From the IMG/VR virus record IMGVR_UViG_3300021400_000219, positions 121,970 through 139,573 of that record: DNA of 17,604 bases; one strand, 5' to 3'. Below are positions 3,537-17,604 of this stretch, one piece after another. Origin of the DNA: a virus. Every line of letters starts with the position of its first letter. Position 1 is the stretch's first letter. The notes below the pieces were generated by a model, which ran no database searches, was not told the DNA's origin, and saw only the letters and a list, made by a program, of their open reading frames with translations. A program made the position numbers and the translations under genes.

Positions 3537-3699
3537 AGTATCAATTCCCTTCTTTTTTTTCTTGGGGTTTCTGACCCCCTCAACAATTATTATTATAGCA
3601 GGTTTTTTGAAAATTGCAAGATGGTAAATTGCACAAAATGCGCAGGTAGTTTTTGTGCAAAATGCCGGGGCGCCCGGGCGGGAGTTAGCCGCAGCTAAC

Positions 3700-4282: not shown

Positions 4283-4363
4283 GATAAATTTGTTCGTCAA
4301 TTTGCACAAAAGTGGTTAGTATAGGCTAACCGCACCCGGGAGAGTTAGTGTGCGCTAACTTCC

Positions 4364-4398: not shown

Positions 4399-4761
4399 TC
4401 AAATGTCCATGGCCTTGAAGTAGGTGACACGCTTGTCAACATACTTGTCAACCATGCCGTTGAGATACAGGGTGCGGAGCAGACCGCTCACCCGCTGGCT
4501 GGTAGCATCTGCCAGCTCAGGCACCCCAGCGCAAATCTCAGAGATGCGGAAACCCTTGTCCGAATCATCCCGCAGGAAATCCAGAATCTTGGAGCGAATG
4601 GCATCGTTTTCCACCTGCTTGGCGGAAGGCTTGCGCTCAGCCGTGGACTTCTTGGCAAAGCCCTCGGCAATCTTTTCCAGCTTCTCCCGCAGGGCAGTTT
4701 CCTCAGCAGGGACGAAAGTCAGGGCCATCTCAATAGCAGTCTTATTAGTCAGCTTAGTCAT
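4399..4761 (-). CDS. Family A winged-helix-like DNA-binding protein, paralog 2 (120 aa)
   Basis: Start set to the ATG at 4759-4761, preceded by AGTGAGTGATACT; the identical context occurs at paralog 4. Promoter TTGACA-17-TATAAT at 4831-4859, with a second promoter TTGCAA-16-TATAAT at 4961-4988. A strong intrinsic terminator (GGCCCCatgtGGGGCC plus UUUUCCUUUUUCU) follows directly after the TGA. Confidence 0.75.
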   Translation of the reverse strand: MTKLTNKTAIEMALTFVPAEETALREKLEKIAEGFAKKSTAERKPSAKQVENDAIRSKILDFLRDDSDKGFRISEICAGVPELADATSQRVSGLLRTLYLNGMVDKYVDKRVTYFKAMDI

Positions 4762-5069: not shown

Positions 5070-5145
5070 TGGGGGGTCTGCGCGCGGCGGCACCGGCCGT
5101 TATCGGGACGCGCGTGTGTGTGCGTGTGTCGCTTTAAAGAGCTAA
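5070..5145 (+). repeat. GC-rich element A, with alternating purine-pyrimidine runs: GCGCGCG...CCGGCCGTTA...CGCGCGTGTGTGTGCGTGTGTCGC...CTTTAAAG..CTAAAG
   Basis: One of five related copies. The others are at about 1085-1215, 10410-10480, 14045-14125 and 16950-17040. Each ends in CCCGGG or the gene-end hairpin. Confidence 0.55.
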
Positions 5146-5170
5146 AGCGCCCGGGAGAGTTAGCGAGGGC

Positions 5171-5458
5171 TTACCCCTCGCTCGTATCTACTCCCAGAAT
5201 AATCAACAGACTACAGATAGTGCCCCACGCATGGACGCCCATGTCCTCAGGGATTGCATCCCACACATCAGGATACAGACGGCGCACACCAGAGAGAAGC
5301 ATCCCGCCCCAGTTACCACCGCAAGCGGTACACAAGTCAAGGAAATCTTTAAAACTCATTTTAGTTTTCTGCGCCATGCACGCATAGACAACAACTTCAT
5401 CGCCCCACTCGTTCCGCACAGTATCAAGGGCTTCCATGAAATCAGAATGAAGAATCAT
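5171..5458 (-). CDS. Hypothetical protein (95 aa)
   Basis: Its start overlaps the stop of the upstream small basic gene (ATGA overlap at 5455-5458), with AAAGGAG 8 nt upstream. The TAA stop is in the loop of the CGAGGG/CCTCG hairpin. Confidence 0.65.
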   Translation of the reverse strand: MILHSDFMEALDTVRNEWGDEVVVYACMAQKTKMSFKDFLDLCTACGGNWGGMLLSGVRRLYPDVWDAIPEDMGVHAWGTICSLLIILGVDTSEG

Positions 5459-5716: not shown

Positions 5717-5995
5717 TTACTCCCAAGTCCCTTCCAGATAAAGCTGGATAATTCTAGTAGCCATTTTCTTGGGCTCCAGCATAGTCACGTCATCCTCATC
5801 CCAAGGGAACTGATAGGATTCAACCATTCCCTTGTCACTCCCATAGGTACCAGCATGACAAGCAACATCACCTTCATGCCAAGGGAAACGCAACTGCATC
5901 CCTTCAAAAATAGGATTAACAGTGAAAGGAACGCTTGCAAAAGTCAGGCAGGCAATCACAGCATTAATAGCATCAGTATACTTGTTAGTGAACAT
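5717..5995 (-). CDS. Hypothetical protein (92 aa)
   Basis: Start at the ATG at 5993-5995, preceded by AAAGGAGGAA. Promoter TTGACA-17-TACAAT at 6026-6054 with a short conserved leader (GACTACAGTAAAACAAAGGAGG). The TAA stop is in the loop of the ACTTGG/CCAAGT hairpin. Confidence 0.7.
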   Translation of the reverse strand: MFTNKYTDAINAVIACLTFASVPFTVNPIFEGMQLRFPWHEGDVACHAGTYGSDKGMVESYQFPWDEDDVTMLEPKKMATRIIQLYLEGTWE

Positions 5996-6025
5996 TTTTT
6001 GTTCCTCCTTTGTTTTACTGTAGTC

Positions 6026-6054
6026 ATTGTACCACATGGTAAAGCATTTGTCAA
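6026..6054 (-). promoter_or_regulatory. Promoter TTGACA-17-TGgTACAAT with an upstream UP-like element (AATTCCATTAAATTTTTTTGAAAAA)
   Basis: Hexamers and spacing. The same roughly 50-bp upstream module recurs at 1625-1665, 6583-6635, 7351-7395, 8589-8633 and 9181-9225. Confidence 0.65.
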
Positions 6055-6115
6055 TAGGTTTTTCAAAAAAATTTAATGGAATTTTTTTCCAGTTACCCGG
6101 GCGTGTGCTGGAAAT

Positions 6116-6295
6116 TTATTCCAGCACTTCCACCTCTTCCCAATCCCAAAACTCTTCATTAGGATTCCAGAATGTGGCAAAATCATCACATTCATCAATG
6201 GCAGAAACTCCCAGTTTACAGCGTCCATCCTTTTCCCAGTAGGGACAATCCCAGCCGTTGACAGTGCAGTAAATAACCATTCTTTTTTCTTTCAT
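6116..6295 (-). CDS. Small Cys-rich acidic protein (59 aa, C-x6-C-x8-C-x9-C), possibly metal-binding
   Basis: Under the track threshold. Its ATG overlaps the TGA of gene 6292..6504 as an ATGA overlap. GGAAAGTGATACA sits before the ATG. The TAA stop is in the loop of the GCTGGAA/TTCCAGC hairpin next to CCCGGGCG. Confidence 0.5.
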   Translation of the reverse strand: MKEKRMVIYCTVNGWDCPYWEKDGRCKLGVSAIDECDDFATFWNPNEEFWDWEEVEVLE

Positions 6296-6504
6296 TGTAT
6301 CACTTTCCTTTCTTCAAGTTCACAATCTTCACGAGTCATTAGATAATCAAACTCTTTCAAGCACTCATAGTTTCCCGCAAGCGCATACTCTACAATATCT
6401 CTTGCAGTAGTCCAAGCAATGTAGTTTTCAGCATCGCAATGGTCAATCCTTGCATCAAAGATGTGGCGCAGGGTATCCACAATTTCAGACGAGATAATAT
6501 ACAC
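6292..6504 (-). CDS. Hypothetical protein (70 aa, GTG start)
   Basis: ORF-track frame. GGAAGGTGATACATT precedes the GTG. Promoter TTGACA-17-TATACT at 6554-6582 with the conserved leader UUGUUCCAAGGGAAGG. Confidence 0.55.
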   Translation of the reverse strand: MYIISSEIVDTLRHIFDARIDHCDAENYIAWTTARDIVEYALAGNYECLKEFDYLMTREDCELEERKVIQ

Positions 6505-6647
6505 AATGTATCACCTTCCTATTGGATTTGTTTCCTTCCCTTGGAACAACTATAGTATAGCACAGCAGAGGGTCTTTGTCAATACTAAATTGAAAAAAAT
6601 TTGATGGAATTTTTGGAAATGTTTTCCAGTGCCCGGGTGATGGTGAC

Positions 6648-6827
6648 TTAGTCACCATCCCTTTCTTCAAATTCACATACAGGACAAATAAAATCTCTAA
6701 AGTCTTCCTCTTCCCAATCAGATTCATAGATAGGCTCGCCGCACTCGGGACAATTATAAAATCGTTCATCCCAATTTACGAAACCGCCGAATACATTTTC
6801 AACAATCTTTGCATTCAGTTCCCACAT
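6648..6827 (-). CDS. Small zinc-ribbon-like acidic protein (59 aa, CPEC...CPVC, D/E-rich C-terminus)
   Basis: Internal ATG of track ORF 6648..6908, preceded by AAGGAGGT with 7 nt spacing. That SD site overlaps the stop of the upstream 34-aa peptide gene. The TAA stop is in the loop of the GGTGAC/GTCACC hairpin. Confidence 0.6.
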   Translation of the reverse strand: MWELNAKIVENVFGGFVNWDERFYNCPECGEPIYESDWEEEDFRDFICPVCEFEERDGD

Positions 6828-6840
6828 GGAATTTACCTCC

Positions 6841-6945
6841 TTACCAACCAAAAATCCGAGAGAGTATAACAAGTATTGCATCAAATACAGCTCCAATACC
6901 AATGGCACCCATAATCATCCAAAATAAAACATCCATGTCTTTCAT
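6841..6945 (-). CDS. Tiny hydrophobic membrane peptide (34 aa, MKDMDVLFWMIMGAIGIGAVFDAILVILSRIFGW)
   Basis: Hand translation. GAGGGAGGT sits 6 nt before the ATG. Promoter TTGACT-16-TATACT at 6975-7002 sits immediately upstream with no other ORF available. Single transmembrane segment. Confidence 0.45.
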   Translation of the reverse strand: MKDMDVLFWMIMGAIGIGAVFDAILVILSRIFGW

Positions 6946-7041
6946 GTTATTACCTCCCTCATTTCTGTAATTATAGTATACCACAAATTATCCAAAAGTC
7001 AAGTTACAATTTGGTTACAAACACCCGGGCGCGAAGGTGAC

Positions 7042-7281
7042 TTAGTCACCCTCATTCGTCTTCATTGGAAACAGGTCGTCCAGATTGGTAACACCTGGAA
7101 TAAATTCAGTAATAAAAGAAAAAGGTCTTGCTTCTGCCAATTCTACGTTGTCAATGTCCCACACATCATCAAAGGCTTCTTCGCACGGCGGGCGTAATCC
7201 CTTCCAAAATTTGGTTTCTGCTTCCTCTGCGGTTTCCGCTTCAATCATGCAATAACCAGAAAAATCAATGTACCATTTCAT
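7042..7281 (-). CDS. Small highly acidic protein (79 aa), candidate DNA-mimic or anti-defence protein
   Basis: ORF-track frame. AAAGGAG sits 9 nt before the ATG. Promoter TTGACA-17-TATACT at 7322-7350. The TAA stop is in the loop of the same GGTGAC-tta-GTCACC hairpin used by 6648..6827. Confidence 0.7.
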   Translation of the reverse strand: MKWYIDFSGYCMIEAETAEEAETKFWKGLRPPCEEAFDDVWDIDNVELAEARPFSFITEFIPGVTNLDDLFPMKTNEGD

Positions 7282-7321
7282 TAGATGATACTCCTTTCAT
7301 TTCTTTTCTTAGGTTGAGTAT

Positions 7322-7350
7322 AGTATAACACTTCACAGGGCATTTGTCAA
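7322..7350 (-). promoter_or_regulatory. Promoter TTGACA-17-TGtTATACT for acidic gene 7042..7281
   Basis: Consensus hexamers and an extended -10. Confidence 0.65.
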
Positions 7351-7439
7351 TAGAAAATTGAAAAAAATTTAATGGAATTTATTCCCATTTACCCGGGCGC
7401 GTTAGCTGCTGCTAACTCTGGAAGAAAAAGGAAGGGGGA

Positions 7440-7805
7440 TTACTCCCCCTTCACCTGGAAGCGGCTGACCCGCTTCTCCACAACCTTCTCCACGGTTCCA
7501 GCTTCTACCAGCTGGCGCAGAAGGGCGGAAGCCTGCTGGCTGGAAGAGAGTTCCAGTTCGGCGGCTACTTCCTTCGCCTGCATAGGCTCGTGGTCAGTCA
7601 GCAGTTCAACGATGCGGGCCTTGATACCCTCGTTTTCAATCTGCTTCTTGGTGGGCTTGCGCTCGCCCTTGGACTTGGAAGCGTTCCGCTTCTCATAGCT
7701 GGCCTTGCAAGCAACCAGCTTTTCCATGGCTTCCTCGTTGAAGTCAGCGGGCAGGGAAGCAATAGCCATTTCCAGAGCCTTCACATAAGTCATCTTGTTA
7801 GTCAT
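7440..7805 (-). CDS. Family A winged-helix-like DNA-binding protein, paralog 3 (121 aa)
   Basis: Start set to the ATG at 7803-7805 (GGTAGTGCATACT context). The C-terminus (...VEKRVSRFQVKGE) parallels paralog 1. The stop is in the loop of the AAGGGGGA/TCCCCCTT hairpin. Two tandem promoters at 7880-7908 and 8019-8047. Confidence 0.75.
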   Translation of the reverse strand: MTNKMTYVKALEMAIASLPADFNEEAMEKLVACKASYEKRNASKSKGERKPTKKQIENEGIKARIVELLTDHEPMQAKEVAAELELSSSQQASALLRQLVEAGTVEKVVEKRVSRFQVKGE

Positions 7806-8117
7806 AGTATGCACTACCTTTCTCTGTTTTAACGAGTTCAGCTCTCAATCTGTTTTGTTCTTTCCCTTACTGTGGCTTTATTATACCACAGGTTCAGGGG
7901 TTTGTCAAGAGTTTTTTTGAATTTCTCTTGATTTTTTTGGAGCCATTTTTTAGGTGGGCTACTTCCAACACCCGACTGTTGGCGGTTTTTTAGGTGCGCT
8001 CCCTCACCCGACATCATTATATTACCACAGGTTGCTCCATTTGTCAAGGGTTTTTTCAAAAGTTTTTTCTGGAATTTCTACCAAGATTTTCCAGCGACCC
8101 GGGCGAGTTAGCGGGGG

Positions 8118-8495
8118 TTAACCCCGCTTGTACTCTTTAGTGCCCATAGAGTAAGGAATGTTGTACATCTCACAAGCTTCAATGGCGTACCCGATTGCCA
8201 GATTTGCCATTTCCTGGGCTTGCTCATACTTTCTGTTAGGGGTAATCTTGTAAAGAAAATGGTCATTCTGAACCTGTTCAAACAAGTAGGACATTTTCAG
8301 TCGTGCATGAGCTTCGACGGCAAGCCGCTCAGATTTGGTAGCTTTTGGCATTTTAATCCATGCTAAACACTGAAAATGTTCATTCTGTCTGATGCTGGAA
8401 AGACGCTGTGCTGGGGTGTCTTTGCCAGTTTCACCCAGCTTGAAAACACCATTCTTACGGCAGAAATAATTAAAACCAGTATAAAAGCAAGCCAT
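8118..8495 (-). CDS. Hypothetical protein (125 aa)
   Basis: ORF-track frame. Promoter TTGACA-17-TATACT at 8560-8588. The TAA stop is in the loop of the AGCGGGG/CCCCGCT hairpin next to CCCGGGCG. Confidence 0.65.
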   Translation of the reverse strand: MACFYTGFNYFCRKNGVFKLGETGKDTPAQRLSSIRQNEHFQCLAWIKMPKATKSERLAVEAHARLKMSYLFEQVQNDHFLYKITPNRKYEQAQEMANLAIGYAIEACEMYNIPYSMGTKEYKRG

Positions 8496-8649
8496 TATTC
8501 ATTCTCCATTCATTTTTTATTGATTGGGGTTTACCTTCGTTCCCCTCAACCTTGATTATAGTATAGCAGATAGGAATGGATTTGTCAATACCTTTTTTCA
8601 AATTTTTTAATGGAATTTTTTTCCAGTTGCCCGGGCGCAGGAGTTAGCA

Positions 8650-8955
8650 TTAGCTAACTCCATTTTCTTCCAGACAAAATTCAAAACTCAAATCTTTTAC
8701 CACTTTTTGGGAAATGTATTCACGCACAAGGAAAAGCTCTAAATCTCTAGCCTGCTCCTCTACATAGCTACGGCGCAAATCGCGCACAGTGGAAAGATTT
8801 ACCATCGGGTATTCCATAGGATAACCACGCGCAACCACAATTACATTGTAAAGATTTTCCACGGGGTTCACCCTCATTCTCTTTTTCTTCTGGAATTTAT
8901 TGGTTTTATTGCGTTCAACTTTCGTTCTAAATTCTTTCATTTTTGCCTTGCTCAT
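8650..8955 (-). CDS. Hypothetical protein with a basic N-terminus (101 aa)
   Basis: Start set to the ATG at 8953-8955, which overlaps the TGA of the upstream membrane-protein gene (ATGA). The TAA stop lies in the loop of the GTTAGC-atta-GCTAAC palindrome. Confidence 0.6.
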   Translation of the reverse strand: MSKAKMKEFRTKVERNKTNKFQKKKRMRVNPVENLYNVIVVARGYPMEYPMVNLSTVRDLRRSYVEEQARDLELFLVREYISQKVVKDLSFEFCLEENGVS

Positions 8956-9119
8956 GAGAACACACCCCCAAAATGAAGCACCCAAAATAAACAACAAACC
9001 CCACTCATTGCCATTTCAATATACAAAACAGGGCGGTAATTATCCTCGGCAGTATCCAGCTCTTTCCAGCTCCAAAGGAAAATCACCATTAGCACAATCG
9101 CAATAATCAAATCTTTCAT
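8952..9119 (-). CDS. Small membrane protein (55 aa, one N-terminal transmembrane helix)
   Basis: Internal ATG of track ORF 8952..9140, preceded by CAGGAGGT 7 nt upstream. Promoter TTGACA-17-TATACT at 9152-9180. Confidence 0.6.
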   Translation of the reverse strand: MKDLIIAIVLMVIFLWSWKELDTAEDNYRPVLYIEMAMSGVCCLFWVLHFGGVFS

Positions 9120-9261
9120 TTTAATTACCTCCTGGTTCATTTCTTGAGTATAGTATAACAGATGGGAGAGGATTTGTCAATACCTTTTTTAGAAAAATTT
9201 ACTGGAAATGTTTTCCAAGTGCCCGGGCGGCGCTTTAGCGCACTGAAGCGCTAAAGCATCC

Positions 9262-9615
9262 TCACTTTCTGGGGGCTGATAATACTACTTTGTATTTAGT
9301 ATTTTCAAACGTAAAAATAAACTCTCTTTCTACGTTGGTTATTTCTAACGCTTCCCCGCCATTTTCATTTATTGCGGTTGTGAGAATATCCATTATTGCG
9401 CGTTTTGCGTTGTTTGCTTTACGTTCCTTTTTGGGGAATTTATAAGCGGATACTTTGCGGTCAGCTTGACGCATTTTTTTTGCTACTTTCTGTTGTTCAG
9501 AATTTAACTCAAAAAGTTTTGCCCCGTGGTCTATTGCATCATCATCAGCTAATACTTGTTTAGCTTCTTCCTCTGTCAAATCTAATACCTGCATTAAATG
9601 TTCGATTCTCTCCAT
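9262..9615 (-). CDS. Family B protein, paralog 2 (117 aa). Co-transcribed with the family A gene upstream
   Basis: AAAGGGGGT sits 8 nt before the ATG. There is no promoter or terminator between it and 9645..10019. The TGA stop is followed by the GCTTTAGCGC/GCGCTAAAGC hairpin. Confidence 0.75.
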   Translation of the reverse strand: MERIEHLMQVLDLTEEEAKQVLADDDAIDHGAKLFELNSEQQKVAKKMRQADRKVSAYKFPKKERKANNAKRAIMDILTTAINENGGEALEITNVEREFIFTFENTKYKVVLSAPRK

Positions 9616-9644
9616 TTTTATTTACCCCCTTTTTGGGGAGGGGG

Positions 9645-10019
9645 TTAAACCCCCTCACCCATGGCCTTGAAATAAGTAATGCGCTTATCTACGTACTTAT
9701 CTACCATTCCGTTCAGGTAGAGCGTCCGCAGAAGTCCGCTCACCCTCTGGGAAGTCGCATCGTTCAGAGCGGGAACACCTGCGCAGATTTCAGAGATACG
9801 GAAACCTCTGTCCACATCTTCCCGCAGGAAATCCAGAATTTCCGCACGGACGGCGTCGTTCTCTGCCTGCTTTGCGCTAGGCTTGCGGGGAGCGGTGTTC
9901 TTCTTAATGGCCTGTTCCTTCATCTTCTCCAGCTTTTCCACAACATCCGTCATGTCAGCGGGAACGTAGGACAGAGCAACTTCCAGAGCCTTAACAGTAG
10001 TCATCTTATTGGTAGCCAT
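9645..10019 (-). CDS. Family A winged-helix-like DNA-binding protein, paralog 4 (124 aa)
   Basis: Start at the ATG at 10017-10019 (AGTGAGTGATACT context). It is almost identical to paralog 2 over the C-terminal 70 aa. The TAA stop is in the loop of the GGGGAGGGGG/CCCCCTCACCC hairpin. Tandem promoters at 10073-10101 and 10225-10253. Confidence 0.75.
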   Translation of the reverse strand: MATNKMTTVKALEVALSYVPADMTDVVEKLEKMKEQAIKKNTAPRKPSAKQAENDAVRAEILDFLREDVDRGFRISEICAGVPALNDATSQRVSGLLRTLYLNGMVDKYVDKRITYFKAMGEGV

Positions 10020-10072
10020 AGTATCACTCACTTTCTCTGTTTGTGGGGTTTATCAGCTCCCCTTGATGTATT

Positions 10073-10101
10073 AAGTATAGCACAGGTTGAAGGGTTTGTC
10101 A
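10073..10101 (-). promoter_or_regulatory. Proximal promoter TTGACA-17-TGcTATACT for family A gene 9645..10019. A distal promoter TTGACA-17-TATATT lies at 10225-10253
   Basis: Consensus hexamers. Tandem double promoters are seen before all four family A genes. Confidence 0.6.
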
Positions 10102-10629
10102 AGAGTTTTTTGCAGTTTTTCTGATTTTTTTTGTGAGAACCACGAATGGAAAAAACTCTCAAAAAATTATCGTTTGAAACTCTGTCCCTAGGGCTTTGGG
10201 GCCCCTTGCCCTTTGGACAAGTATAATATAACACATTGGGGCGCGTTTGTCAATACTGATTTGAAAATTTGGGGGCATTCTCTGTTTTGCACAATTTTGA
10301 TGCAAAAATTGCGTCATTTTTGTGCATTTTGACGGCGCGCCCGGGTGAACTACCAATTTCAGGAAAAGCTGGGGTCAAGAGAGAACAAGGAAATTCATTG
10401 AAAAATTTGGTAACGATTTCCAGCGCGCGACACCGGAACCCCTGGGCCGTGTGCGTGTGCGACGGGTGCACGCAGTATTTATTTATACAAGCGGAACTAA
10501 TAGAAAAATCAATTTAAAATATTTATACATATTTATTTATTATTAAGGGTACCGGCGCAATTCTCAAATCAAAAACCTTCCAGGTCTATTTACTTCTGGA
10601 AAATGAAATAAAAATAGGGGCTGATTTAT

Positions 10630-10731
10630 TTTCAAAAATGAGATGAAAAAACGAGAGTATTTCTTTCGTAGATTCAAAGGAAACAATTTCGTTTTTCAAT
10701 CCAAAAATCATAAGGAAACACTCTCGTTTTT
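10630..10731 (-). terminator. Large hairpin terminator (12-bp stem AAAAACGAGAGU/ACUCUCGUUUUU with a roughly 60-nt loop), followed by a second terminator at 10566-10601
   Basis: Perfect 12-bp inverted repeat at 10647-10658 and 10720-10731, followed on the minus strand by UCAUCUCAUUUUUG. The second hairpin, UUCCAG-N12-CUGGAA, is followed by GGUUUUUGAUUUG. Confidence 0.5.
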
Positions 10732-10735
10732 CAAT

Positions 10736-10888
10736 TCAGAAATCTTCAATTTTTTTATTTTTTTCTTTGGCTCGATTATACTCTGAACCTTTGCCCTTTT
10801 TATTAGCTATTCTTTTGGACCTTTTCCGCAGAGTATTTAAACCATCACCATCAGTCTTTTTAATTTCTTTAACGGTTTTTTCATCCAT
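10736..10888 (-). CDS. Small lysine-rich basic protein (50 aa, MDEKTVKEIKKTDGDGLNTLRKRSKRIANKKGKGSEYNRAKEKNKKIEDF)
   Basis: Hand translation; under the track threshold. GGGAGGT sits 9 nt before the ATG, which lies just after the TAA of HAD gene 1. Its TGA stop is immediately followed by a large terminator hairpin at 10647-10731 and a second terminator. Confidence 0.45.
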   Translation of the reverse strand: MDEKTVKEIKKTDGDGLNTLRKRSKRIANKKGKGSEYNRAKEKNKKIEDF

Positions 10889-10891
10889 TTA

Positions 10892-11341
10892 TTAAAGACC
10901 TCCCAGAACTTCAAGAATATTATTTACATCATAGGCATTTCCGCCTGCATTATTCCATTCAATTCTATTTCTTTCTTCATCATCAAACAGGATGCCGATT
11001 TCATTTACTACGGTACTTTTGGGGGTGCCATAGGAAACAATTTTCACATCATCAAAATGGACGCTTGCCAGATGTTTTTTTAACCACATCTTTTTTGCTT
11101 CTGTTACAACCTTGTTGTAATCGGGGTTATCTTCCTTAGAGAGCCAAGAGACAACACCAATTTTCCATCCAAGGGCCTGTAACTTGTTCAGCTTGTGGGC
11201 CAGCGCAGAAAGCCGAATCAGGGGTTTTGCGATTTCATAGGGAAGGGGATTTCTCTCAATTAGATAGGAGAGCCAATTTTCCACGCCATACAGATCGGCA
11301 ATAGTCCCATCCATGTCGAAATAAATAGCCTTGTTCATCAT
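10892..11341 (-). CDS. HAD-superfamily hydrolase, 5'(3')-nucleotidase-like, paralog 1 (149 aa)
   Basis: Motif I (IYFDMDGTIADL) and motif IV (GILFDDEE). Start set to the ATG at 11339-11341, downstream of promoter TTGACT-17-TATTAT at 11390-11418. The 30-aa N-terminal extension in the track is translated leader. Confidence 0.7.
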   Translation of the reverse strand: MMNKAIYFDMDGTIADLYGVENWLSYLIERNPLPYEIAKPLIRLSALAHKLNKLQALGWKIGVVSWLSKEDNPDYNKVVTEAKKMWLKKHLASVHFDDVKIVSYGTPKSTVVNEIGILFDDEERNRIEWNNAGGNAYDVNNILEVLGGL

Positions 11342-11485
11342 TCTGACCAACCCTTTCTTTAAAAGGTTTTTTATCTTTTCTGTATTATTATAATACCAAA
11401 TTTTTTTATAAAAGTCAATAGGGAATCGCAAATTTTAGAAGTTTGTGCAATTTGCACAAAAGCGCCCGGGCGAGTTACCCTGTGC

Positions 11486-11725
11486 TTACAAGGTAACTTT
11501 GCACTGTCTAAAATCATGCCACAGATGGGGCTGAGTCAGCGGAGACCGCAGGGAATAAGCTTGGTATTGCAAGAAAGATAAAATGCGGATTTCTGTTATT
11601 GTAGTTTCATCATCTAAATCAAACTTTTTATTTATTACAGAGCCGTGCAATCTGCCAGGGGTTTTTGCAAAAACTTTAGTAGTAAAACCAAACGGGTCCA
11701 TAATCTTAATCTCATAATAATTCAT
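11486..11725 (-). CDS. Hypothetical protein (79 aa). Second gene of an operon. Its 3' extent is uncertain
   Basis: ATG at 11723-11725, preceded by AAAGGAGAA 9 nt upstream. The C-terminal third reads through a hairpin-rich region, so the gene may be shorter than annotated. Confidence 0.45.
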   Translation of the reverse strand: MNYYEIKIMDPFGFTTKVFAKTPGRLHGSVINKKFDLDDETTITEIRILSFLQYQAYSLRSPLTQPHLWHDFRQCKVTL

Positions 11726-11765
11726 TTTTTTATTCTCCTTTCTTTTGGCGTATTCTTTCGGGGTT

Positions 11766-11927
11766 TTATCCCCGAAAGATAACATTTCCAGAGAGGTTAT
11801 TTACAAGCTTGACAGGCTCGTTTTTAACCATGGCCAGGGTTTCGGCCAGAATCTTAATGGCCCGCAGGTCATTCATAGAGGAAACGGGGGTCTTGCCCAC
11901 GTAGATGGTAAACAGAGTGATATTCAT
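11766..11927 (-). CDS. Small hypothetical protein (53 aa)
   Basis: Internal ATG, preceded by AAGGAGGT 7 nt upstream. Promoter TTGACA-17-TATAAT at 11960-11988. The TAA stop is in the loop of the 10-bp stem TCTTTCGGGG/CCCCGAAAGA. Confidence 0.55.
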   Translation of the reverse strand: MNITLFTIYVGKTPVSSMNDLRAIKILAETLAMVKNEPVKLVNNLSGNVIFRG

Positions 11928-12046
11928 TGAAGTTACCTCCTTATTCATTTCGTACCCTTATTATAAGCGATGTTTTGCGATTTGTCAAGGGGTTTATGCG
12001 ATTTTTCTTCTGGAATTTTTTGGTTATGGCGCCCGGGTGGCTGGCC

Positions 12047-12490
12047 TTACCCGATATGGGCGGCCAGCCAAGCCAGCATCTTTTTGCTTTCTTTAGCGCA
12101 CCGGATTTTCATCCCGCCGCCGTTCTTCTGGCTTTCCCGCTCGGTCTTGCAGAACTCGGTGCAGAAGGCGGTGAACTCGTCCCGGTTCATCATATAGACC
12201 TGATAATCGGCGGTAACGTAGGCCCAGAGGTTGCTGTGGGTGCGCTCCATATAGAGGGCCCAGATTTCATCATAAGTTTCCCGGCCTTCGCACAGGGTGG
12301 CGCTCATAAGGGTGAAGGCAGAAGCCTTGACGGAGATGAGCATTTCACCAAGCTCGATATCAGAGCCTTTGTCATATGCACCGCTATCATGGGTGGTGCG
12401 GTCGATGCCCATATAGTGGCACAGATCGTGCTCACGGGCAATGCCCTTATTAGTAGCGGGGGAAACGTGGTCAATCTTGAAGGTCTTCAT
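12047..12490 (-). CDS. Hypothetical protein (147 aa)
   Basis: Start at the ATG at 12488-12490, preceded by AGGAAAGGGAG. Promoter TTGACT-17-TATACT at 12522-12550. The TAA stop is in the loop of the GGCTGGCC/GGCCAGCC hairpin. The overlapping plus ORF 11927..12523 is rejected. Confidence 0.65.
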   Translation of the reverse strand: MKTFKIDHVSPATNKGIAREHDLCHYMGIDRTTHDSGAYDKGSDIELGEMLISVKASAFTLMSATLCEGRETYDEIWALYMERTHSNLWAYVTADYQVYMMNRDEFTAFCTEFCKTERESQKNGGGMKIRCAKESKKMLAWLAAHIG

Positions 12491-12726
12491 CTGAAGCACT
12501 CCCTTTCCTTAGGATGGTTATAGTATAGCACCATTCCCCGGGATAGTCAATACAAAATCGCAAATTTCCCCTTGTGCAAATTATACAAATGTTGGAGCGG
12601 ATTTTTGGGGGCTGTTGTGCAAGTTGCACAATTAGTGTAACCTGGGTCACATTAAAAGTAACAAAAGAGTTACAATCTCTAACAATCAATTACAATCTTT
12701 TTTTTACTTTCAAAACACTTTTTTTA

Positions 12727-12911
12727 AGTTAGCAGTTAGCAAAGGGTAATGCTAGTTAGCACAAGCTAATTGTTGTTAGTTCGAACTAACTCCGGTTAGC
12801 AGGGACTAACTGGAGTTAGCCTAGGCTAACTTTAGCACACTAAAGCTGTAGCGATTTAGCGAACTAAAGTGCGCCGGACCTGGCAATTTGAACAATTAGC
12901 GGCTGCTAACT
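12727..12911. repeat. Array of eight short palindromes of the GTTAGC-N4-6-GCTAAC or TTTAG-N4-CTAAA type
   Basis: Read directly from the sequence: AGTTAGCAGTTAGCA, TTAGCacaaGCTAA, GTTAGTTCGAACTAAC, GGTTAGcagggaCTAAC, AGTTAGCCTAGGCTAACT, CTTTAGcacaCTAAAG, TTTAGcgaaCTAAA, TTAGCggctGCTAA. The same palindrome type sits at nearly every gene junction. Confidence 0.7.
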
Positions 12912-13169
12912 TTGTGCATTTTGACGAGGTTTCGGGATTCGTCAAGTTGCACAAAAATGTAACCAAATTGTAACCAAAATTTGTGCAATTTGACGGTGGC
13001 GCGAACTCGGCTGCCAACGACTGCGCTGGGCCACAGTGCACTCGTTGGCGGCCGGTTCGTCATTTTGCACAAATGCGTGCGTGCGAGGGGCCTTAACTTT
13101 ATGCATTATGACGAAAAAAAATTTTTGTGCAAAATGACGAATCAAATCCTGATTCGTCAAAATGCACAA

Positions 13170-13463
13170 AAAAAGAGGCATTGCCCGGCCTCATCGGGGG
13201 GAAGCTTGACGCCCTTCCCTGGCGGTGGTGTCCACTTTCGGGGACACGCCCGGCTCCGTTTGCTAGCCGCAGGAGCGTCGCGGCGCTGGGGTCGTTCCCT
13301 TGCCCCTTGGGGAACTTGATGGCCTCCATTTCTATCCCGCGGCCTTGGGGGCGGCCTAGCTACTTTGTGGGGAGTATCGCCCACGTTTCGCCGACGCGGC
13401 TGGGATTTTGGTGTCATCGCGCATCCCGTGCGCTCAAGAGGGACAAGTCAACCTCTTTTCTAT
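13170..13463 (-). ncRNA. Candidate GC-rich structured non-coding RNA of about 290 nt
   Basis: Promoter TTGACA-17-TATAAT at 13470-13498 on the minus strand. Intrinsic terminator GAGGC-N8-GCCUC followed by U7, at 13167-13192 in plus coordinates. GC content is far above the window average. There is no SD site and no conserved ORF. It contains a GTGTCCCC-GAAA-GTGGACAC tetraloop hairpin and a GUGGGCGAUACUCCCCAC hairpin. Confidence 0.45.
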
Positions 13464-13540
13464 GGTCTTATTATAGCACCCGCAAGGGGTTTTGTCAAGG
13501 GTTTTTTCTTTTTTTTTTTTTGTTCCCGGAGGGCCGGGGC

Positions 13541-13699
13541 TTAGTAGCCCCAGCCGATGGAGGTTACCCTCCATCCCTCCTCCCGCAGTGCGGGATAAAG
13601 GGCGGCGAAACTCGCCAACCCGTGTTCCCACACACGGGACTCACAGGCCCACAGGCCAGTGAAGAGGTTCCGATGGAACCGGATGTATTCAATTTTCAT
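13541..13699 (-). CDS. Small hypothetical protein (52 aa, W-rich)
   Basis: Internal ATG of track ORF 13541..13816, preceded by AAAGGAGGT. Promoter TTGACA-17-TATAAT at 13720-13748 with the conserved leader GATTACAGTAAAACAAAGGAGG. The TAA stop is in the loop of the GGGGCT/AGCCCC hairpin. Confidence 0.55.
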   Translation of the reverse strand: MKIEYIRFHRNLFTGLWACESRVWEHGLASFAALYPALREEGWRVTSIGWGY

Positions 13700-13759
13700 G
13701 GAAGTGACCTCCTTTGTTTTACTGTAATCATTATAGCAGACCCGCCCGGGTTTGTCAAC

Positions 13760-13925
13760 CCTTTTTTTCATTTTTTTTATTTTTTTTTGGTTCCCCATAC
13801 CCCTCCGGGGAACCACTGGCCGGCTATTTTTTACCTCCCGCCCTAGGGGGTGGCCCTTGGTACTTTGTGGGGTATCTTGCCCACGTTTCCCAGAGGGAGG
13901 GCCCGGAGGGTTTCCCCTCCTGACA
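13760..13925 (-). ncRNA. Second GC-rich non-coding segment, a partial paralog of the 13170-13463 RNA
   Basis: It shares about 30 nt with the other RNA (GAAACGUGGGC.AGAUAC.CCCACAAAGUA). It lies downstream of a weaker promoter, TAGACT-17-TATTAT, at about 13930-13960. It ends in the hairpin GGUUCCCC...GGGGAACC, followed by an A-rich run rather than a U-run. Confidence 0.3.
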
Positions 13926-14007
13926 TGATTATAATACCACAGGCCCGGCTAAAAGTCTATTGACAAATCTCACAAATCGGGATGTTCTATTTTGTGCATT
14001 TTTACTC

Positions 14008-14037
14008 TTGACAGCCGAGCCTATTTTGTGGTATAAT
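14008..14037 (+). promoter_or_regulatory. Plus-strand promoter TTGACA-18-TGgTATAAT, transcribing into GC-rich element B
   Basis: Near-consensus hexamers. The conserved upstream sequence GCATTTTTACTCTTGACA is shared with the promoter at 16916. Confidence 0.55.
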
Positions 14038-14138
14038 ATTTCTGTACTGCCTGCGCGCGCGGTCGCCGGCCGTTAGCGGGGGCTAACTGTGCCTGGGTGT
14101 GCGCCTTTATTGCAATAAAGCACTAAAGTGCACAAGGG

Positions 14139-14171
14139 CAAAAAACTACGAGGATTTTTTAATCCTCGTAG
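14139..14171 (-). terminator. Intrinsic terminator overlapping the stop codon of 14159..14290
   Basis: CUACGAGGAU-UAA-AAAAUCCUCGUAG followed by UUUUUUG. The stop codon is in the loop. Confidence 0.65.
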
Positions 14172-14290
14172 TCAATGGCGATGACCTTCCAGCCCTTGGG
14201 CGGTTCGTAGTTTTCCGGCAGGCCCTTCCAGAGAATCAATTCAGTATCGGCCCACTCTCCATCAATCTTTCTGATTTCAATGCTCCACAT
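14159..14290 (-). CDS. Small hypothetical protein (43 aa)
   Basis: Internal ATG of track ORF 14159..14383. Promoter TTGACA-17-TATAAT at 14343-14371 and a leader of the AAUCAGAAAGAGGGAAGGAAAACC type. The TAA stop is in the loop of terminator ACGAGGAU/AUCCUCGU, followed by UUUUUUG. Confidence 0.5.
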   Translation of the reverse strand: MWSIEIRKIDGEWADTELILWKGLPENYEPPKGWKVIAIDYED

Positions 14291-14385
14291 AATCTTTTTT
14301 CCTTTCTGGTTTGTTAGGTTTTCCTTCCCTCTTTCTGATTGTATTATAGCAGACTCAACCGGGTTTGTCAACCCCTTTTTCAAAT

Positions 14386-14529
14386 TTATTTAATTCTTTT
14401 TACTTTGATAACCTTAGCCCCAGAGTATTCAGCTTTTCCCTCTTTCAGAAATTTGCGGTTAGGATTGACAAGGGTGATGGTAGATTCTTCGCCGCAAAGG
14501 CTGATGGTAATTTCATAAATCTTTTTCAT
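14386..14529 (-). CDS. Small hypothetical protein (47 aa)
   Basis: Hand translation. Promoter TTGACA-17-TATAAT at 14563-14591 has no other ORF downstream of it. GGAAAGGAAA sits before the ATG. Confidence 0.4.
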   Translation of the reverse strand: MKKIYEITISLCGEESTITLVNPNRKFLKEGKAEYSGAKVIKVKRIK

Positions 14530-14609
14530 TTTTTTTCATTTCCTTTCCTTTTTTCTGTCTTTATTATAGCATCGGCCGGGCGATTTGTCAACCCCTTTTT
14601 TGAAATTTT

Positions 14610-14756
14610 TTAGGGAAATTTATCTCTCCCTAAAAAACAATCCCGCATAAATTCCAACTGTTCCAGAGAAAAGCGGGCCGCAAATTGTGCGGGCGTCTCT
14701 TCAAAGAGATGGTATCCGTTGGCAACCATTTCCATTACAACTTCCAGCTTTTTCAT
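14610..14756 (-). CDS. Small hypothetical protein (48 aa)
   Basis: Internal ATG, preceded by AAAGGAGGAA. Promoter TTGACA-16-TATAAT at 14787-14814. The N-terminal WYNKGTKTKEE in the track is a translated -10 element and leader. Confidence 0.55.
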   Translation of the reverse strand: MKKLEVVMEMVANGYHLFEETPAQFAARFSLEQLEFMRDCFLGRDKFP

Positions 14757-15022
14757 TTTGTGTTCCTCCTTTGTTTTTGTACCTTTATTATACCATACTT
14801 TTGGCAAATGTCAAGACCTTTTTTCAATTTTCTTTTGGTCTTTGCGGGTCCGACCCCCGCACCCTCTGAAGGGCTGTTGTCGGCTTGGAGGTCCTTCCTA
14901 CTGGGACCCCGTCCTTGATTATTATTATAGCAGATAATAGCCAAAAGTCAATTACAAAATGGTTACAATTTTATTTCAGAATGGTTACAATTTGCGCCCG
15001 GGCAAATGGGAAAAAGAGGGAA

Positions 15023-15487
15023 TTACTTCCCTCTCGCCCATGTCAGAACGTCCATAATCATTTCAGGATTGAAGGCCCAACCTTCCATTTCTTCCCACTC
15101 AATCACATTGTTTTCTTCATCGTCAAACAGAATCCCATTTTTCACGGTGGGCACTGTGCTTTTGGGCGTCCCATAGGGAACAATGTTGATTTCATCAAAG
15201 TGAACGCTTGCAAGGTGTTTCTTGAGCCAATTCTTTTTGGCTTCAATAACCTTTTCGTCAAATTCCTTGTTGCTATTCTTAGCTAACCAACTAACTACCC
15301 CGATTGTCCATCCCTTTTTCTGAAGGTTATTCAACCGACGGGCAAGGGCGTTCATGTTTACCAGAGGCTTAGCAACTTCATAGGGGAAGGGATTGTTTTC
15401 CAGTAGATAACCCAGCCAGTTTTCTACGCCGTAGAAGTTGGCGATTGTTCCATCCATGTCAAAGTAGATTGCCCGATTGATTTTCAT
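15023..15487 (-). CDS. HAD-superfamily hydrolase, 5'(3')-nucleotidase-like, paralog 2 (154 aa)
   Basis: IYFDMDGTIANF and GILFDDEE motifs. AAAAGGAG sits 9 nt before the ATG. Promoter TTGACA-16-TATACT at 15519-15546. The TAA stop is in the loop of the GAGGGAA/TTCCCTC hairpin. Confidence 0.75.
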   Translation of the reverse strand: MKINRAIYFDMDGTIANFYGVENWLGYLLENNPFPYEVAKPLVNMNALARRLNNLQKKGWTIGVVSWLAKNSNKEFDEKVIEAKKNWLKKHLASVHFDEINIVPYGTPKSTVPTVKNGILFDDEENNVIEWEEMEGWAFNPEMIMDVLTWARGK

Positions 15488-15590
15488 TTTGTTCAGCTCC
15501 TTTTCTTTTTCTGATTATAGTATACCACAAATTCCGGGATTGTCAAGAGTTTTTTTCAAAAAAATCAAAAAACTTTTTTCAAAAAACCTC

Positions 15591-15619
15591 TTGACAAATT
15601 GAAAAAACTGTGATACAAT
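15591..15619 (+). promoter_or_regulatory. Plus-strand promoter TTGACA-17-TGtGATACAAT, whose transcript starts AAAGGGGGAAUUA followed by U19
   Basis: It sits back-to-back with the minus promoter of HAD gene 2 (15519-15546). The two -35 regions form an inverted repeat, CCTCTTGACAAATT. Confidence 0.55.
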
Positions 15620-15632
15620 AAAGGGGGAATTA

Positions 15633-15651
15633 TTTTTTTTTTTTTTTTTTT
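15633..15651 (+). repeat. Homopolymeric T19 tract at +15 of a plus-strand transcript
   Basis: Counted directly. A second tract, T26, lies at 17475-17500 in the same context. There are also T13 at 13511-13523 and T-runs at 13766-13790. Confidence 0.8.
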
Positions 15652-15705
15652 GGTTAGCTTAGGCTAACTTAGGTTAGTATGTGCTAACTACCCGGGCGCA
15701 AGAAA

Positions 15706-16026
15706 TCAGCCCTTGGGCTGATTCTCGCAAGCCTTTTTATTATTGTTCAGGGTTTTCATTAAAGACTTGGGGCACTTTTCGCAGTTGTGGCAATTCTTGT
15801 AAATGCTGATTCCCTGACTAACAGTTGCGATAAACATTGTTACCAGATTGTTAGTAGTTGCATTGTATACAATCACAATCCCCTTTTCAGTGAGAACAAC
15901 CTTGCCATCGTTGTTGTCGTAGGTTTCTGCGATTGCAGGCCCAAACTCGCCCTTGCAATAGTCGATGATGTAGGAAATTCTTTCCATCCTCTCAACCTTG
16001 GCGTGATAACTGACTTTCTTTGTCAT
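15706..16026 (-). CDS. Hypothetical protein (106 aa) with a C-terminal Cys cluster (CHNCEKC)
   Basis: ATG at 16024-16026, preceded by AAAAGGGG 9 nt upstream. Promoter TTGACA-17-TATACT at 16060-16088. Confidence 0.6.
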   Translation of the reverse strand: MTKKVSYHAKVERMERISYIIDYCKGEFGPAIAETYDNNDGKVVLTEKGIVIVYNATTNNLVTMFIATVSQGISIYKNCHNCEKCPKSLMKTLNNNKKACENQPKG

Positions 16027-16149
16027 TTTTGACAACCCCTTTTCTTATTTTCTGACTAAAGTATAGCACACATTCCCGCAGTTGTCAATACCTTTTTTCA
16101 AATTTTTTCAGATTTTTTTGAACCGGGCGAATGGAAAAAGCTGGAAGTG

Positions 16150-16479
16150 TTACCACTCCCAGCCATCAAACCAACCATCATACCGAACAGAAACAATCTC
16201 ATCGTCATAGATAATGGGGGTATTTCTGTCATACATTACCATTGACACAATGTCACCCACAATCCAGTCACCTTCGCAATCTGTAAAGCACCATTCATTC
16301 CCGTTGAAATCCTTGCAGGTGACAAGTTTGCACTCGTCGTTGATTTCTACTATCACAGTTGTCATTGCATACAGGTTAGCAGTCTTTCCGCTTGCGGCGT
16401 CAGCGTTCACACTTGCGCCGATGCACATACCGCACACCATAACCACCAAAAGAACCATCACACTAATCAGCTTTTTCAT
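16150..16479 (-). CDS. Secreted Cys-rich small protein with an N-terminal Sec signal peptide (109 aa)
   Basis: MKKLISVMVLLVVMVCGMCIGASVNA followed by DAA, which is a typical signal peptide with an AxA cleavage site. AAAGGAGGAAAA sits 6 nt before the ATG. Promoter TTGACA-16-TATAAT at 16510-16537. Confidence 0.7.
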   Translation of the reverse strand: MKKLISVMVLLVVMVCGMCIGASVNADAASGKTANLYAMTTVIVEINDECKLVTCKDFNGNEWCFTDCEGDWIVGDIVSMVMYDRNTPIIYDDEIVSVRYDGWFDGWEW

Positions 16480-16585
16480 TTTGTTTTCCTCCTTTGTTTT
16501 ACTGTAATCATTATACCATACTTTTGGAATTTGTCAAGAGGTTTTTTCAAATTTCCCGGAAAATCTTTTGAGAGGGTTTCCCCTC

Positions 16586-16807
16586 TCAAAAAATGTTTAC
16601 CATTTCAGGCTTTACCATCTCAACAGGAAGGAAACAACCGCTTTTGCAGTAAACTTCTTGTTTCACGTTTCCATCTTTGATAACCAGACGATACACGCCG
16701 CAGGTTCTTCCAGCCGCTTCCATTTTTGCTTGTTTCCAAGCTTTTCCAAAAGCTGCAGTATCCTCAAACTCAAACCCCGCAACCTGATAAACAAACTTCT
16801 TAGCCAT
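16586..16807 (-). CDS. Hypothetical protein (73 aa)
   Basis: AAGGAAAGGGG sits before the ATG. Promoter TAGACA-17-TATAAT at 16840-16868. The TGA stop is inside terminator hairpin TTTTGAGAGGG/CCCTCTCAAAA. Confidence 0.7.
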   Translation of the reverse strand: MAKKFVYQVAGFEFEDTAAFGKAWKQAKMEAAGRTCGVYRLVIKDGNVKQEVYCKSGCFLPVEMVKPEMVNIF

Positions 16808-16915
16808 TTTAATGACCCCTTTCCTTAATTTCTATATTTATTATAGCATCCTGTAAGCTATTTGTCTATTGGTAAATTGCACAAAAAAGTTTTTGATTTT
16901 TGGGCATTTTTACTC

Positions 16916-16944
16916 TTGACATTCGCTGTAAATTGTGGTAAAAT
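16916..16944 (+). promoter_or_regulatory. Plus-strand promoter TTGACA-17-TGgTAAAAT, transcribing into GC-rich element C
   Basis: Hexamers and spacing. An upstream TTGCACAA box lies at about 16877-16884. Confidence 0.55.
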
Positions 16945-17046
16945 AAAATGGGGAGCTGTTGTTCGCGCGCGCCGAAGGCCGTTAGCGGCCGCTAACCGGG
17001 TGTGCGTGTGCGCACCTTTATAGCTTTAATGGGTTAAAGTAACCGG

Positions 17047-17076
17047 GTAAAAAAGAGAAGGACTTTTCAGTCCTTC
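17047..17076 (-). terminator. Intrinsic terminator overlapping the stop codon of 17067..17294
   Basis: GAAGGACU-GAAA-AGUCCUUC followed by UCUUUUUUACC. The stop TGA is in the loop. Confidence 0.65.
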
Positions 17077-17294
17077 ATCCCCATTTCTACGAAAACTTCA
17101 AAGCCTTCAAAGTAGTAAGTCCGCCATTCGCCTTCAAATTCAATTTCTTCCCGCTCCGCCATTTCAGACAGAACTACTTCAACTTCCTGCAAGGCCCGCC
17201 ATTCTGCAGCATCACCATCAAACCGAACTGCTACAACACCATCTTCAAACTCAACCTCAAAAGCTTCCAGCATTTCAAGAATCATTTCTAACAT
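17067..17294 (-). CDS. Small extremely acidic protein (75 aa, about one third E/D), candidate DNA-mimic or anti-restriction-like protein
   Basis: AGAAAGGAAA sits before the ATG. Promoter TTGACT-16-TATACT at 17347-17374. The TGA stop is in the loop of terminator GAAGGACU/AGUCCUUC, followed by UCUUUUUUACC. Confidence 0.7.
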   Translation of the reverse strand: MLEMILEMLEAFEVEFEDGVVAVRFDGDAAEWRALQEVEVVLSEMAEREEIEFEGEWRTYYFEGFEVFVEMGMKD

Positions 17295-17433
17295 TGTTTT
17301 ATTTCCTTTCTGGTTTGTTGGGTTTTCCTTCCCTCTTTCTGATTATAGTATAGCATAAATTCCCGGAAAGTCAAGAGTTTTTTACAGAAAAGTTGTACAA
17401 ATGCCGCACACATTTTTTGTACAGTTTGTCTAT

Positions 17434-17462
17434 TGACTTTTTTCTCTTGGATGTGATACAAT
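17434..17462 (+). promoter_or_regulatory. Plus-strand promoter TTGACT-17-TGtGATACAAT, whose transcript starts GAAGGGGGAUUC followed by U26
   Basis: Paralogous to the promoter at 15591. A TTGTACAA palindrome box lies between it and the divergent minus promoter at 17347-17374. Confidence 0.55.
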
Positions 17463-17604
17463 GAAGGGGGATTCTTTTTTTTTTTTTTTTTTTTTTTTTA
17501 AAGGGTTGCGCAAACCAACCCTCCGGGGAAAAGAGAAAAGGATTTTTCACCCTTTTTCTCCATCCCCATTACGTTTTAAAAGTTTTTGCCACTTTACATA
17601 ATAC

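Follow-up and report, generated by a model that had tools for sequence, protein, structure and literature searches.

What do the smallest and most acidic genes in the early region of a large phage do? The question is raised by a 17,604-nucleotide stretch of viral DNA (IMG/VR record IMGVR_UViG_3300021400_000219, positions 121,970 to 139,573; the whole of this stretch is called the window below), in which a first-pass annotation had singled out four tiny genes as candidate DNA-mimic or anti-defense factors. We label them A (6116–6295), B (6648–6827), C (7042–7281), and D (17067–17294). They are genuine genes for mutually unrelated small acidic proteins. Our reading of their function, which we put forward tentatively and short of an even chance, is that A–D are nonenzymatic binding proteins from an early ORFan module that would be transcribed by host RNA polymerase (RNAP), in an uncultured, TAG-recoded phage of ~174 kb, probably of rumen Firmicutes.

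Four Small Acidic Genes

The gene set used here comprises 32 gene models built from open reading frames (ORFs) with Shine-Dalgarno sites; the minus strand carries all credible genes of the 17.6-kb window. A–D lie on that strand at the coordinates and with the lengths first assigned to them (59, 59, 79, and 75 amino acids [aa], respectively), each with a Shine-Dalgarno site, a TAA or TGA stop, and zero in-frame TAG codons. The strong acidity ascribed to them was borne out as well: net charges are −9, −14, −13, and −18, isoelectric points lie between 4.05 and 4.2, and Asp plus Glu (D/E) account for 25%, 31%, 24%, and 31% of residues. For D, which had been described as about one third Glu/Asp, the 31% corresponds to 23 residues. 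The four are the top four for acidity among the 32 gene models, with D/E fractions 2.6–4.2 standard deviations (SD) above the other 28 genes (mean 13.6%, SD 4%). Beyond A–D, two more small genes are acidic, at 6292–6504 (70 aa, net charge −9) and 14159–14290 (43 aa, −5).

To put these values in context, we counted ORFs of 40–100 aa preceded by a ribosome-binding site (RBS) in 35 related loci from phages or metagenome-assembled genomes (MAGs), with homologs of B excluded. Of 326 such ORFs, 37 (11%) are equally acidic (D/E ≥24% and net charge ≤−9); small acidic proteins are a regular feature of early regions in related phages. With a base rate of this size, the composition that defines A–D is only weakly specific, and acidity alone is here a weak predictor. 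Moreover, because the four proteins are mutually unrelated, composition is all that groups them. Small acidic early ORFans are a known kind of phage protein, of which A–D are new members.

Protein Families and Predicted Folds

B (59 aa, minus strand) belongs to a family present in at least 33 loci of related phages or MAGs: 25 IMG/VR contigs of up to 181 kb and eight MAG contigs, several of ruminant-gut origin. The zinc ribbon reported in the first-pass annotation is present (CPEC...CPVC), its knuckles being CPECGEPIYESDW and CPVC; the stretch EEEDFRD, taken there for an acidic tail, is instead the loop between the two knuckles. All 18 aligned homologs share cysteines C26, C29, C48, and C51; P27, E28, E31, P32, I33, Y34, D37, and P49 are invariant as well, and the family motif is CPECGEPIYExD[WY]...CPxC. 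Every homolog is acidic, with net charges from −10 to −25. Profile searches with B returned generic zinc-knuckle and rubredoxin matches only, and tblastn against phages gave none. B resembles zinc-ribbon and rubredoxin-like proteins (the HVO_2753 family, rubredoxin) in having two CPxC knuckles ~20 residues apart. Unlike the members of those families, it scores below the family thresholds, has its own invariant CPECGEPIYExD[WY] loop, and combines an N-terminal helix with a uniformly strong negative charge.

In most of the related loci, B is kept in an early module with a DnaQ-like exonuclease, a HAD-type deoxyribonucleotidase, and winged helix-turn-helix (wHTH) genes. Across diverged phages it is about as conserved as the neighboring exonuclease: identities for B and the exonuclease, respectively, are 69% versus 41% in one related locus (L006), 59% versus 59% in a second (L011), and 46% versus 44% in a third (L022). 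A search of the related loci for a fixed operon partner found none, and the gene for a 34-aa peptide that precedes B in the window is not conserved beside its homologs. B is a predicted zinc ribbon; most plausibly it has a conserved role connected with the early replication/nucleotide module or with host RNAP.

A (59 aa, minus strand) contains the four cysteines that had been noted in it, spaced C-x6-C-x8-C-x9-C, and is Trp-rich as claimed (five Trp); an acidic/aromatic tail, DDFATFWNPNEEFWDWEEVEVLE, follows the last cysteine. It has five close relatives only, at 75%–98% identity, and all six aligned sequences share C10, C17, C26, and C36, along with the Trp residues. A scan of IMG/VR gave no match, and Pfam gave weak hints of two Cys-rich domains, zf-CCCH and DUF1540. 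On this pattern of residues, A reads as a predicted Cys4 metal-binding knob with an acidic/aromatic tail.

C (79 aa, minus strand) consists of a core, residues 1–50, and a variable acidic tail. Among ten close relatives, core residues 1–47 are invariant and the tail varies. A profile search of 1.84 billion cluster representatives retrieved 102 at E ≤1e-3, most of them proteins of 50–60 aa, the size of the core alone; their consensus is MxKxYIDFSGYCxIEAxxxEEAExKFW...DDVWDIDxIEE, and their net charge has a median of −10 (−8 or lower in 60 of 76 members). AlphaFold2 (AF2), given 11 sequences, predicted a β-β-α-α-β core (predicted local distance difference test [pLDDT] 80) with a low-confidence tail. 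C can be likened to ribosomal eL20/LX, DpnD/PcfM, DUF1381, and the RNAP epsilon subunit YkzG, all below significance: the family profile matches eL20 weakly (E = 0.02), and DUF1381 is matched by four of the 76 family members at E of about 0.003–0.004 and not by C itself. Membership of C in DpnD/PcfM (PF14207) was considered and rejected, as C itself has no match to that model and just one of the 76 family members does (E about 0.003–0.004). No match was obtained by tblastn with C or a typical family member against phages, or with the C core against plasmids. Judged from its sequences, the C family is an unnamed group of 50–60-aa acidic proteins, often with extra tails. The longer tails of members P0008, P0019, P0026, P0028, P0044, and P0049 end in (E/Q)(D/A)FW(N/H/Y)(D/Q)(K/R), which recalls the FW/DW-rich acidic tail of A and may be a short linear binding motif.

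D (75 aa, minus strand) is known from identical copies only; no other homolog turned up among 5.8 billion clustered proteins, nor did searches of IMG/VR and GenBank phages give one. From its single sequence AF2 predicted an alpha/beta sandwich, α-β-β-α-β-β-β, with a pLDDT of 78 and a predicted template modeling (pTM) score of 0.63. A fold search of BFVD gave no match at E up to 1e-3.

The lead to the nature of D is RraB, an acidic protein inhibitor of RNase E. In a phmmer search of PDB, D matched the Vibrio cholerae protein VC0424 (PDB 1nxi; E = 0.025), and the NCBIfam RraB model aligned in the same register (13.4 bits against a cutoff of 82, E = 0.071). BLASTP with compositional adjustment aligned D residues 7–61 with residues 59–115 of E. 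coli RraB at 31% identity over 58 aa (E = 6e-4). The Smith-Waterman score of D against the VC0424 segment is 83, whereas 5,000 composition-preserving shuffles averaged 28 and reached 63 at most (z ~10–11). The pairwise similarity is above chance and its register consistent. D nonetheless lies below the curated RraB cutoff (PF06877 / NF008393), and it has no Pfam match at E up to 1, with PF06877 included. Like RraB (YjgD of E. coli; VC0424), D is a very acidic alpha/beta protein, aligned at RraB residues ~59–115 and VC0424 residues 62–126, and the stretch common to D and RraB is ...AE+x+IEa+G.W.TYa.EG.... Unlike RraB, D has 75 rather than 132–138 aa, is phage-encoded, and occurs in a Firmicutes-type setting. 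The alignment covers residues ~59–115 of the 138-aa RraB, whose N-terminal ~55 residues are absent from D. When RraB homologs were sought in deposited phage genomes, none was found; the two matches were bacterial contigs. D probably derives from, or has converged on, the C-terminal two-thirds of the RraB fold.

Promoters and the Case for Early Expression

A consensus scan of the window found 87 sigma-70-type sites, where 32 ± 7 would be expected. Directly upstream of genes on the gene strand stand about 27 near-perfect sites (10–12 of 12 matches), nearly all with a TG-extended −10. The first-pass annotation had given each of the four genes a strong promoter of its own, and this holds for C and D. 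The C promoter (7322–7350, minus strand) has a TTGACA −35, a 17-nt spacer, and a TG-extended −10 (TTGACA-17-TGtTATACT); that of D (17347–17374, minus strand) has TTGACT and a 16-nt spacer (TTGACT-16-TGcTATACT), and D ends in an intrinsic terminator (17057–17076, minus strand) whose hairpin loop contains the TGA stop and which is followed by a T-run. It does not hold for A and B, the second genes of bicistronic minus-strand units whose promoters were located by the same scan. The unit with B starts at a promoter at 6975–7002, and its first gene (6841–6945) encodes the 34-aa peptide, which is hydrophobic. The unit with A has its promoter at 6554–6582, and its first gene is the 70-aa acidic gene at 6292–6504. 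The start of A overlaps the stop of that gene (ATGA), an arrangement of translational coupling with a shared promoter.

The surroundings of the window bear on when these genes would be expressed. Beyond window position 17604 (L001:1–6997), on the opposite strand, lie genes for a terminase-large-like protein, a YonG_N-domain protein, a phage sigma factor (phrog_5767), and an HNH endonuclease, with 13, 9, 4, and 3 in-frame TAG codons, respectively. Two further genes with 7 TAG codons each occur in the flanking regions L001:1–6997 and L004:17539–18877, the latter beyond window position 1. In its late genes, therefore, the source phage treats TAG as a sense codon, a usage known from gut phages (bioRxiv 10.1101/2021.08.26.457843). 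Within the window, the 32 early genes stop at TAA (22), TGA (9), and TAG (one, 3879–4229) and have no internal TAG, so that the early module, A–D included, reads alike in either code. Given host-type sigma-A promoters in this module and a sigma factor of the phage's own for the recoded block, early expression of A–D is plausible.

In the loci with B homologs (L006–L040), which are mostly early regions, TAG is rare as a stop (roughly 6% of ORF ends). Reading through TAG adds much coding length in some of these mostly early loci, such as L015. The B family may be concentrated in TAG-recoded phages.

As to the source phage itself, proteins identical to C and D are encoded on a 174,221-bp ENA scaffold (ERZ28612966 scaffold_111), and identical copies of both also occur on short contigs of other assemblies, including run SRR873599. 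We take this run to be a sheep-rumen metagenome, and read the scaffold label SHIW14-1 likewise; the environment is stated in none of the search results. When the whole window was compared with GenBank phages by megablast, no nucleotide match was found.

A Proposed Mode of Action

A–D are too small for enzymes and have the wrong folds for them. Ordinary enzymes are indeed not what structure prediction returned: the folds predicted for C and D are small and nonenzymatic. On the proposed scheme, the four proteins would act stoichiometrically and early in infection on basic nucleic-acid-handling proteins of host or phage, and would block or redirect the proteins they bind. For D, a shortened RraB-like module, the target would be a basic segment of a host ribonuclease or of a similar RNA-binding protein; its action there would parallel that of RraB, or that of Dip from phage phiKZ, which binds the host RNA degradosome (PMC4980113). 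B would serve as a conserved zinc-ribbon adaptor or inhibitor, together with the early replication/nucleotide module or host RNAP. C would bind through a common β-β-α-β mini-domain and carry a variable acidic tail, whereas in A a Cys4 metal-binding knob would display an acidic/aromatic peptide tail. These two, A and C, more likely act as accessory binders carried on cassettes. We liken this early ORFan module to the host-takeover module of phage SPO1.

Several points weigh against this scheme. The early timing of A–D is deduced from promoter type only. Predicted structures cover C and D only; the model of D rests on one sequence, and that of C on 11, with one of five models confident. The acidic composition of the proteins partly reflects a purine-rich coding strand. 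Finally, D is known from identical copies only and so offers no evolutionary evidence of selection.

A bolder reading, which we think improbable, is that at least one of A–D is the founding member of a new class of polyanionic inhibitors from phages; the two candidates are D and the B family. On this reading, D could be the first minimized RraB-like protein carried by a phage, one able to disarm a host ribonuclease or another RNA/DNA-binding defense factor. The B family could be a conserved acidic zinc ribbon, typical of a clade of large phages from rumen and gut that includes at least one TAG-recoded member (the source phage), and would neutralize a conserved host nucleic-acid-binding protein through charge mimicry. 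Many phage inhibitors of host enzymes and defenses come from small acidic early proteins, and shortlists of such proteins are useful in the search for enzyme inhibitors, genome-editing off-switches, and phage-therapy tools. What emerges here is four separable targets: a zinc-ribbon family, an unnamed family with a 50-aa domain, an RraB-like orphan, and a Cys4 protein with an acidic/aromatic tail. The more distinctive by-products are a TAG-recoded phage with a code-neutral early module, promoter cassettes similar to those of T4-type phages (described below), the B and C families, and D.

Alternative Explanations

The alternative that fares best, which we nevertheless think unlikely, is a role inside the phage's own program. 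On this account A–D, and B above all, would be accessory subunits or regulators of early events and would not attack host factors; their targets would be the exonuclease/replication module, the four wHTH paralogs of the window, or the switch from sigma-A to the phage sigma factor. The behavior of B described above fits it: most related loci keep B together with the exonuclease, deoxyribonucleotidase, and wHTH genes, B and the exonuclease are conserved to a similar degree, and the knuckle motif of B is invariant. A modulator of sigma-A or RNAP would moreover be expected in a phage that encodes its own sigma factor. On the other hand, B has no fixed neighbor and sits amid shuffled genes, the distribution of A and D is too narrow for core components, and comparison with PDB sequences showed no similarity of these proteins to known anti-sigma or RNAP-binding phage proteins.

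The first-pass annotation had put these genes forward as candidate DNA mimics, and that at least one of A–D is such an inhibitor of restriction-modification, CRISPR (clustered regularly interspaced short palindromic repeats), or other DNA-targeting defense is, in our estimate, distinctly unlikely. Such a protein would set carboxylates in place of DNA phosphates, as do Ocr, ArdA, Ugi/p56, and the anti-CRISPR (Acr) proteins AcrF2 and AcrIIA4. Like Ocr, ArdA, PBS2 Ugi, phi29 p56, AcrF2, and AcrIIA4, A–D are small, strongly negative, phage-encoded, and probably expressed early. Of the 116 residues of Ocr, 34 are acidic and 6 basic (PMC3439906); its D/E content of 29% compares with 24%–31% in A–D, and p56, an inhibitor of uracil-DNA glycosylase, has just 56 aa (PMC2018632). 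The narrow or patchy distribution of A, C, and D is like that of accessory counter-defense genes. The two deoxyribonucleotidase paralogs of the window also hint at nucleotide-pool manipulation, which in phages with uracil- or hydroxymethyluracil-containing DNA would go together with a glycosylase inhibitor.

No protein of A–D matches Ocr, ArdA, Ugi, p56, or an Acr protein in Pfam, PHROG, or NCBIfam (E up to 1) or among PDB chains, all of which were searched with phmmer and hmmsearch. A lack of sequence matches is tempered by the fact that DNA mimics are highly divergent and undetectable by sequence (PMC3902945). Structure tells the same story: the matches of C and D to Acr proteins are no better than those to dozens of unrelated folds, and a comparison of the predicted folds of C and D with known mimics found no fold in common. 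Nor do A and B, as predicted Cys4 metal-binding mini-proteins, resemble Ocr, ArdA, Ugi, p56, or the Acr proteins, and we know of no DNA mimic that is a metal-knuckle protein. The base rate of equally acidic small ORFs (~11%) further tells against mimicry, as do the conservation of B, which is that of a core gene and not of a fast-evolving counter-defense gene, the fact that D's sole lead is a regulator of RNase E and not a DNA mimic, and the lack of any identified defense or anti-defense gene nearby. The sequence evidence neither supports nor refutes the DNA-mimic reading of A–D, and an anti-defense role is possible.

It is very improbable that some of the four, chiefly the orphans D and A, are young or nonfunctional ORFs from GA-rich cassette DNA, carried along by repeated promoter cassettes without a selected function: D has no homolog in the databases searched, its sequence looks idealized (alternating E, V, and F) and matches designed proteins in PDB, and the coding strand is purine-rich, but D also forms a full unit of promoter, RBS, ORF, and terminator, receives a confident AF2 fold from one sequence, and is similar to RraB beyond composition, and in A the four Cys and the Trp residues persist among relatives of 75%–98% identity.

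Repeated Promoter Cassettes

The promoters of the window are embedded in repeated cassettes of 60–90 nt, which form repeat families D1–D7 between window positions 1219 and 16137. Clear examples lie at 6017–6103, 6527–6637, 7295–7399, and 8551–8637. The order within a cassette is a stop-codon hairpin, CGCCCGGG, an A/T-rich UP-like tract, a TTGACA −35, and a TG-extended −10; CCCGGG occurs 22 times in the window against 3.4 expected. The stop codons of A, B, and C all sit in the loops of such minus-strand hairpins. For C this is GGTGAC-TAA-GTCACC (7036–7050), followed by CGCCCGGG (7024–7029) and the next promoter. For B it is GATGGTGAC-TAA-GTCACCATC (6639–6659), followed by CCCGGG (6632–6637); the hairpin GGTGAC-TAA-GTCACC is common to the stops of B and C. 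The hairpin of A has a 9-bp stem (6105–6127) and is followed by CGCCCGGG (6096–6101) and the next promoter. D stands in a second type of cassette, 85%–89% identical to those upstream of 15023–15487 and 14159–14290.

Cassettes of this kind may bear on how the genes are arranged. In two IMG/VR phages (L031 and L032, at 5833–6120 in each), the homolog of the 6292–6504 gene lies directly upstream of a C-like gene and not of A, a placement that, from the sequences compared, appears to indicate modular reassortment. The neighbors of B also differ among lineages. Each of A–D thus stands in a repeated cassette that comprises a promoter, a 5'UTR, and a stop-codon hairpin, and the cassettes probably allow gene shuffling between phages. 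In T4-type phages, PeSL promoter/stem-loop cassettes flank shuffled ORFan genes (PMC2839356, PMC4122927), and the window resembles these hyperplastic regions in its dense short ORFans, its units bounded by a repeated stem-loop and a strong early promoter, its paralog families, and the evidence of gene reassortment among relatives. It differs from the PeSL phages in belonging to a TAG-recoded rumen phage with Gram-positive–type promoters, and the cassettes differ from PeSL cassettes in placing the stop codon inside the hairpin loop, followed by CGCCCGGG, the A/T tract, TTGACA, and the TG-extended −10. Recombination through the cassettes is deduced for this phage.

Two other repeated elements share the intergenic space. 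The palindrome GTTAGC-N4-6-GCTAAC recurs between genes and adjoins the CCCGGG motif, with sites at 1219–1249, 1659–1689, 3680–3716, 4329–4359, and 5144–5174, and further sites at 7392–7438, 8092–8122, 11459–11489, 14068–14104, and 16977–17013. It could be a candidate operator for the wHTH paralogs or an RNA hairpin. On the plus strand, a promoter-like pair, 91% identical (15591–15651 and 17433–17494), consists of TTGACA...TGTGATACAAT followed by AAGGGGGA and a run of ~20 T; its copies stand divergently upstream of the 15023–15487 promoter and the D promoter.

Other Features of the Window

The neighboring genes include a DnaQ-like exonuclease (2844–3536, minus strand; phrog_20187) and a HAD-type 5'-deoxyribonucleotidase (10892–11338, minus strand; phrog_2643). 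A paralog of the latter at 15023–15487 (minus strand) was assigned by its 63.7% identity to 10892–11338 and by common homologs. The presence of two deoxyribonucleotidase paralogs in the early module points to manipulation of the deoxynucleoside monophosphate pool, and possibly to modified DNA. A neighboring window gene also matches phrog_16527.

Four paralogous basic proteins of ~120 aa are encoded at 1714–2082, 4399–4761, 7440–7805, and 9645–10019. They carry a weak MarR/TrmB-like wHTH signal, and two tandem consensus promoters precede each. Two of the four genes are paired with members of a second paralog family of 116 aa (3879–4229 and 9262–9615), and both the wHTH and the 116-aa families recur among related phage loci.

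A GC-richer stretch (up to 54%), at 12560–13500 and 13760–14100, contains no convincing ORF in either genetic code. A scan for tRNAs and an Rfam search (at the gathering threshold, and with the cutoff relaxed to E = 1 for the ORF-poor stretches) gave chance-level matches only. The ORF-poor stretch has promoters at 13498–13470 and 14951–14924 on the minus strand and at 14008–14037 on the plus strand, and these may drive small RNAs. The plus-strand promoter at 14008–14037 matches the consensus at 12 of 12 positions and is antisense to 14159–14290.

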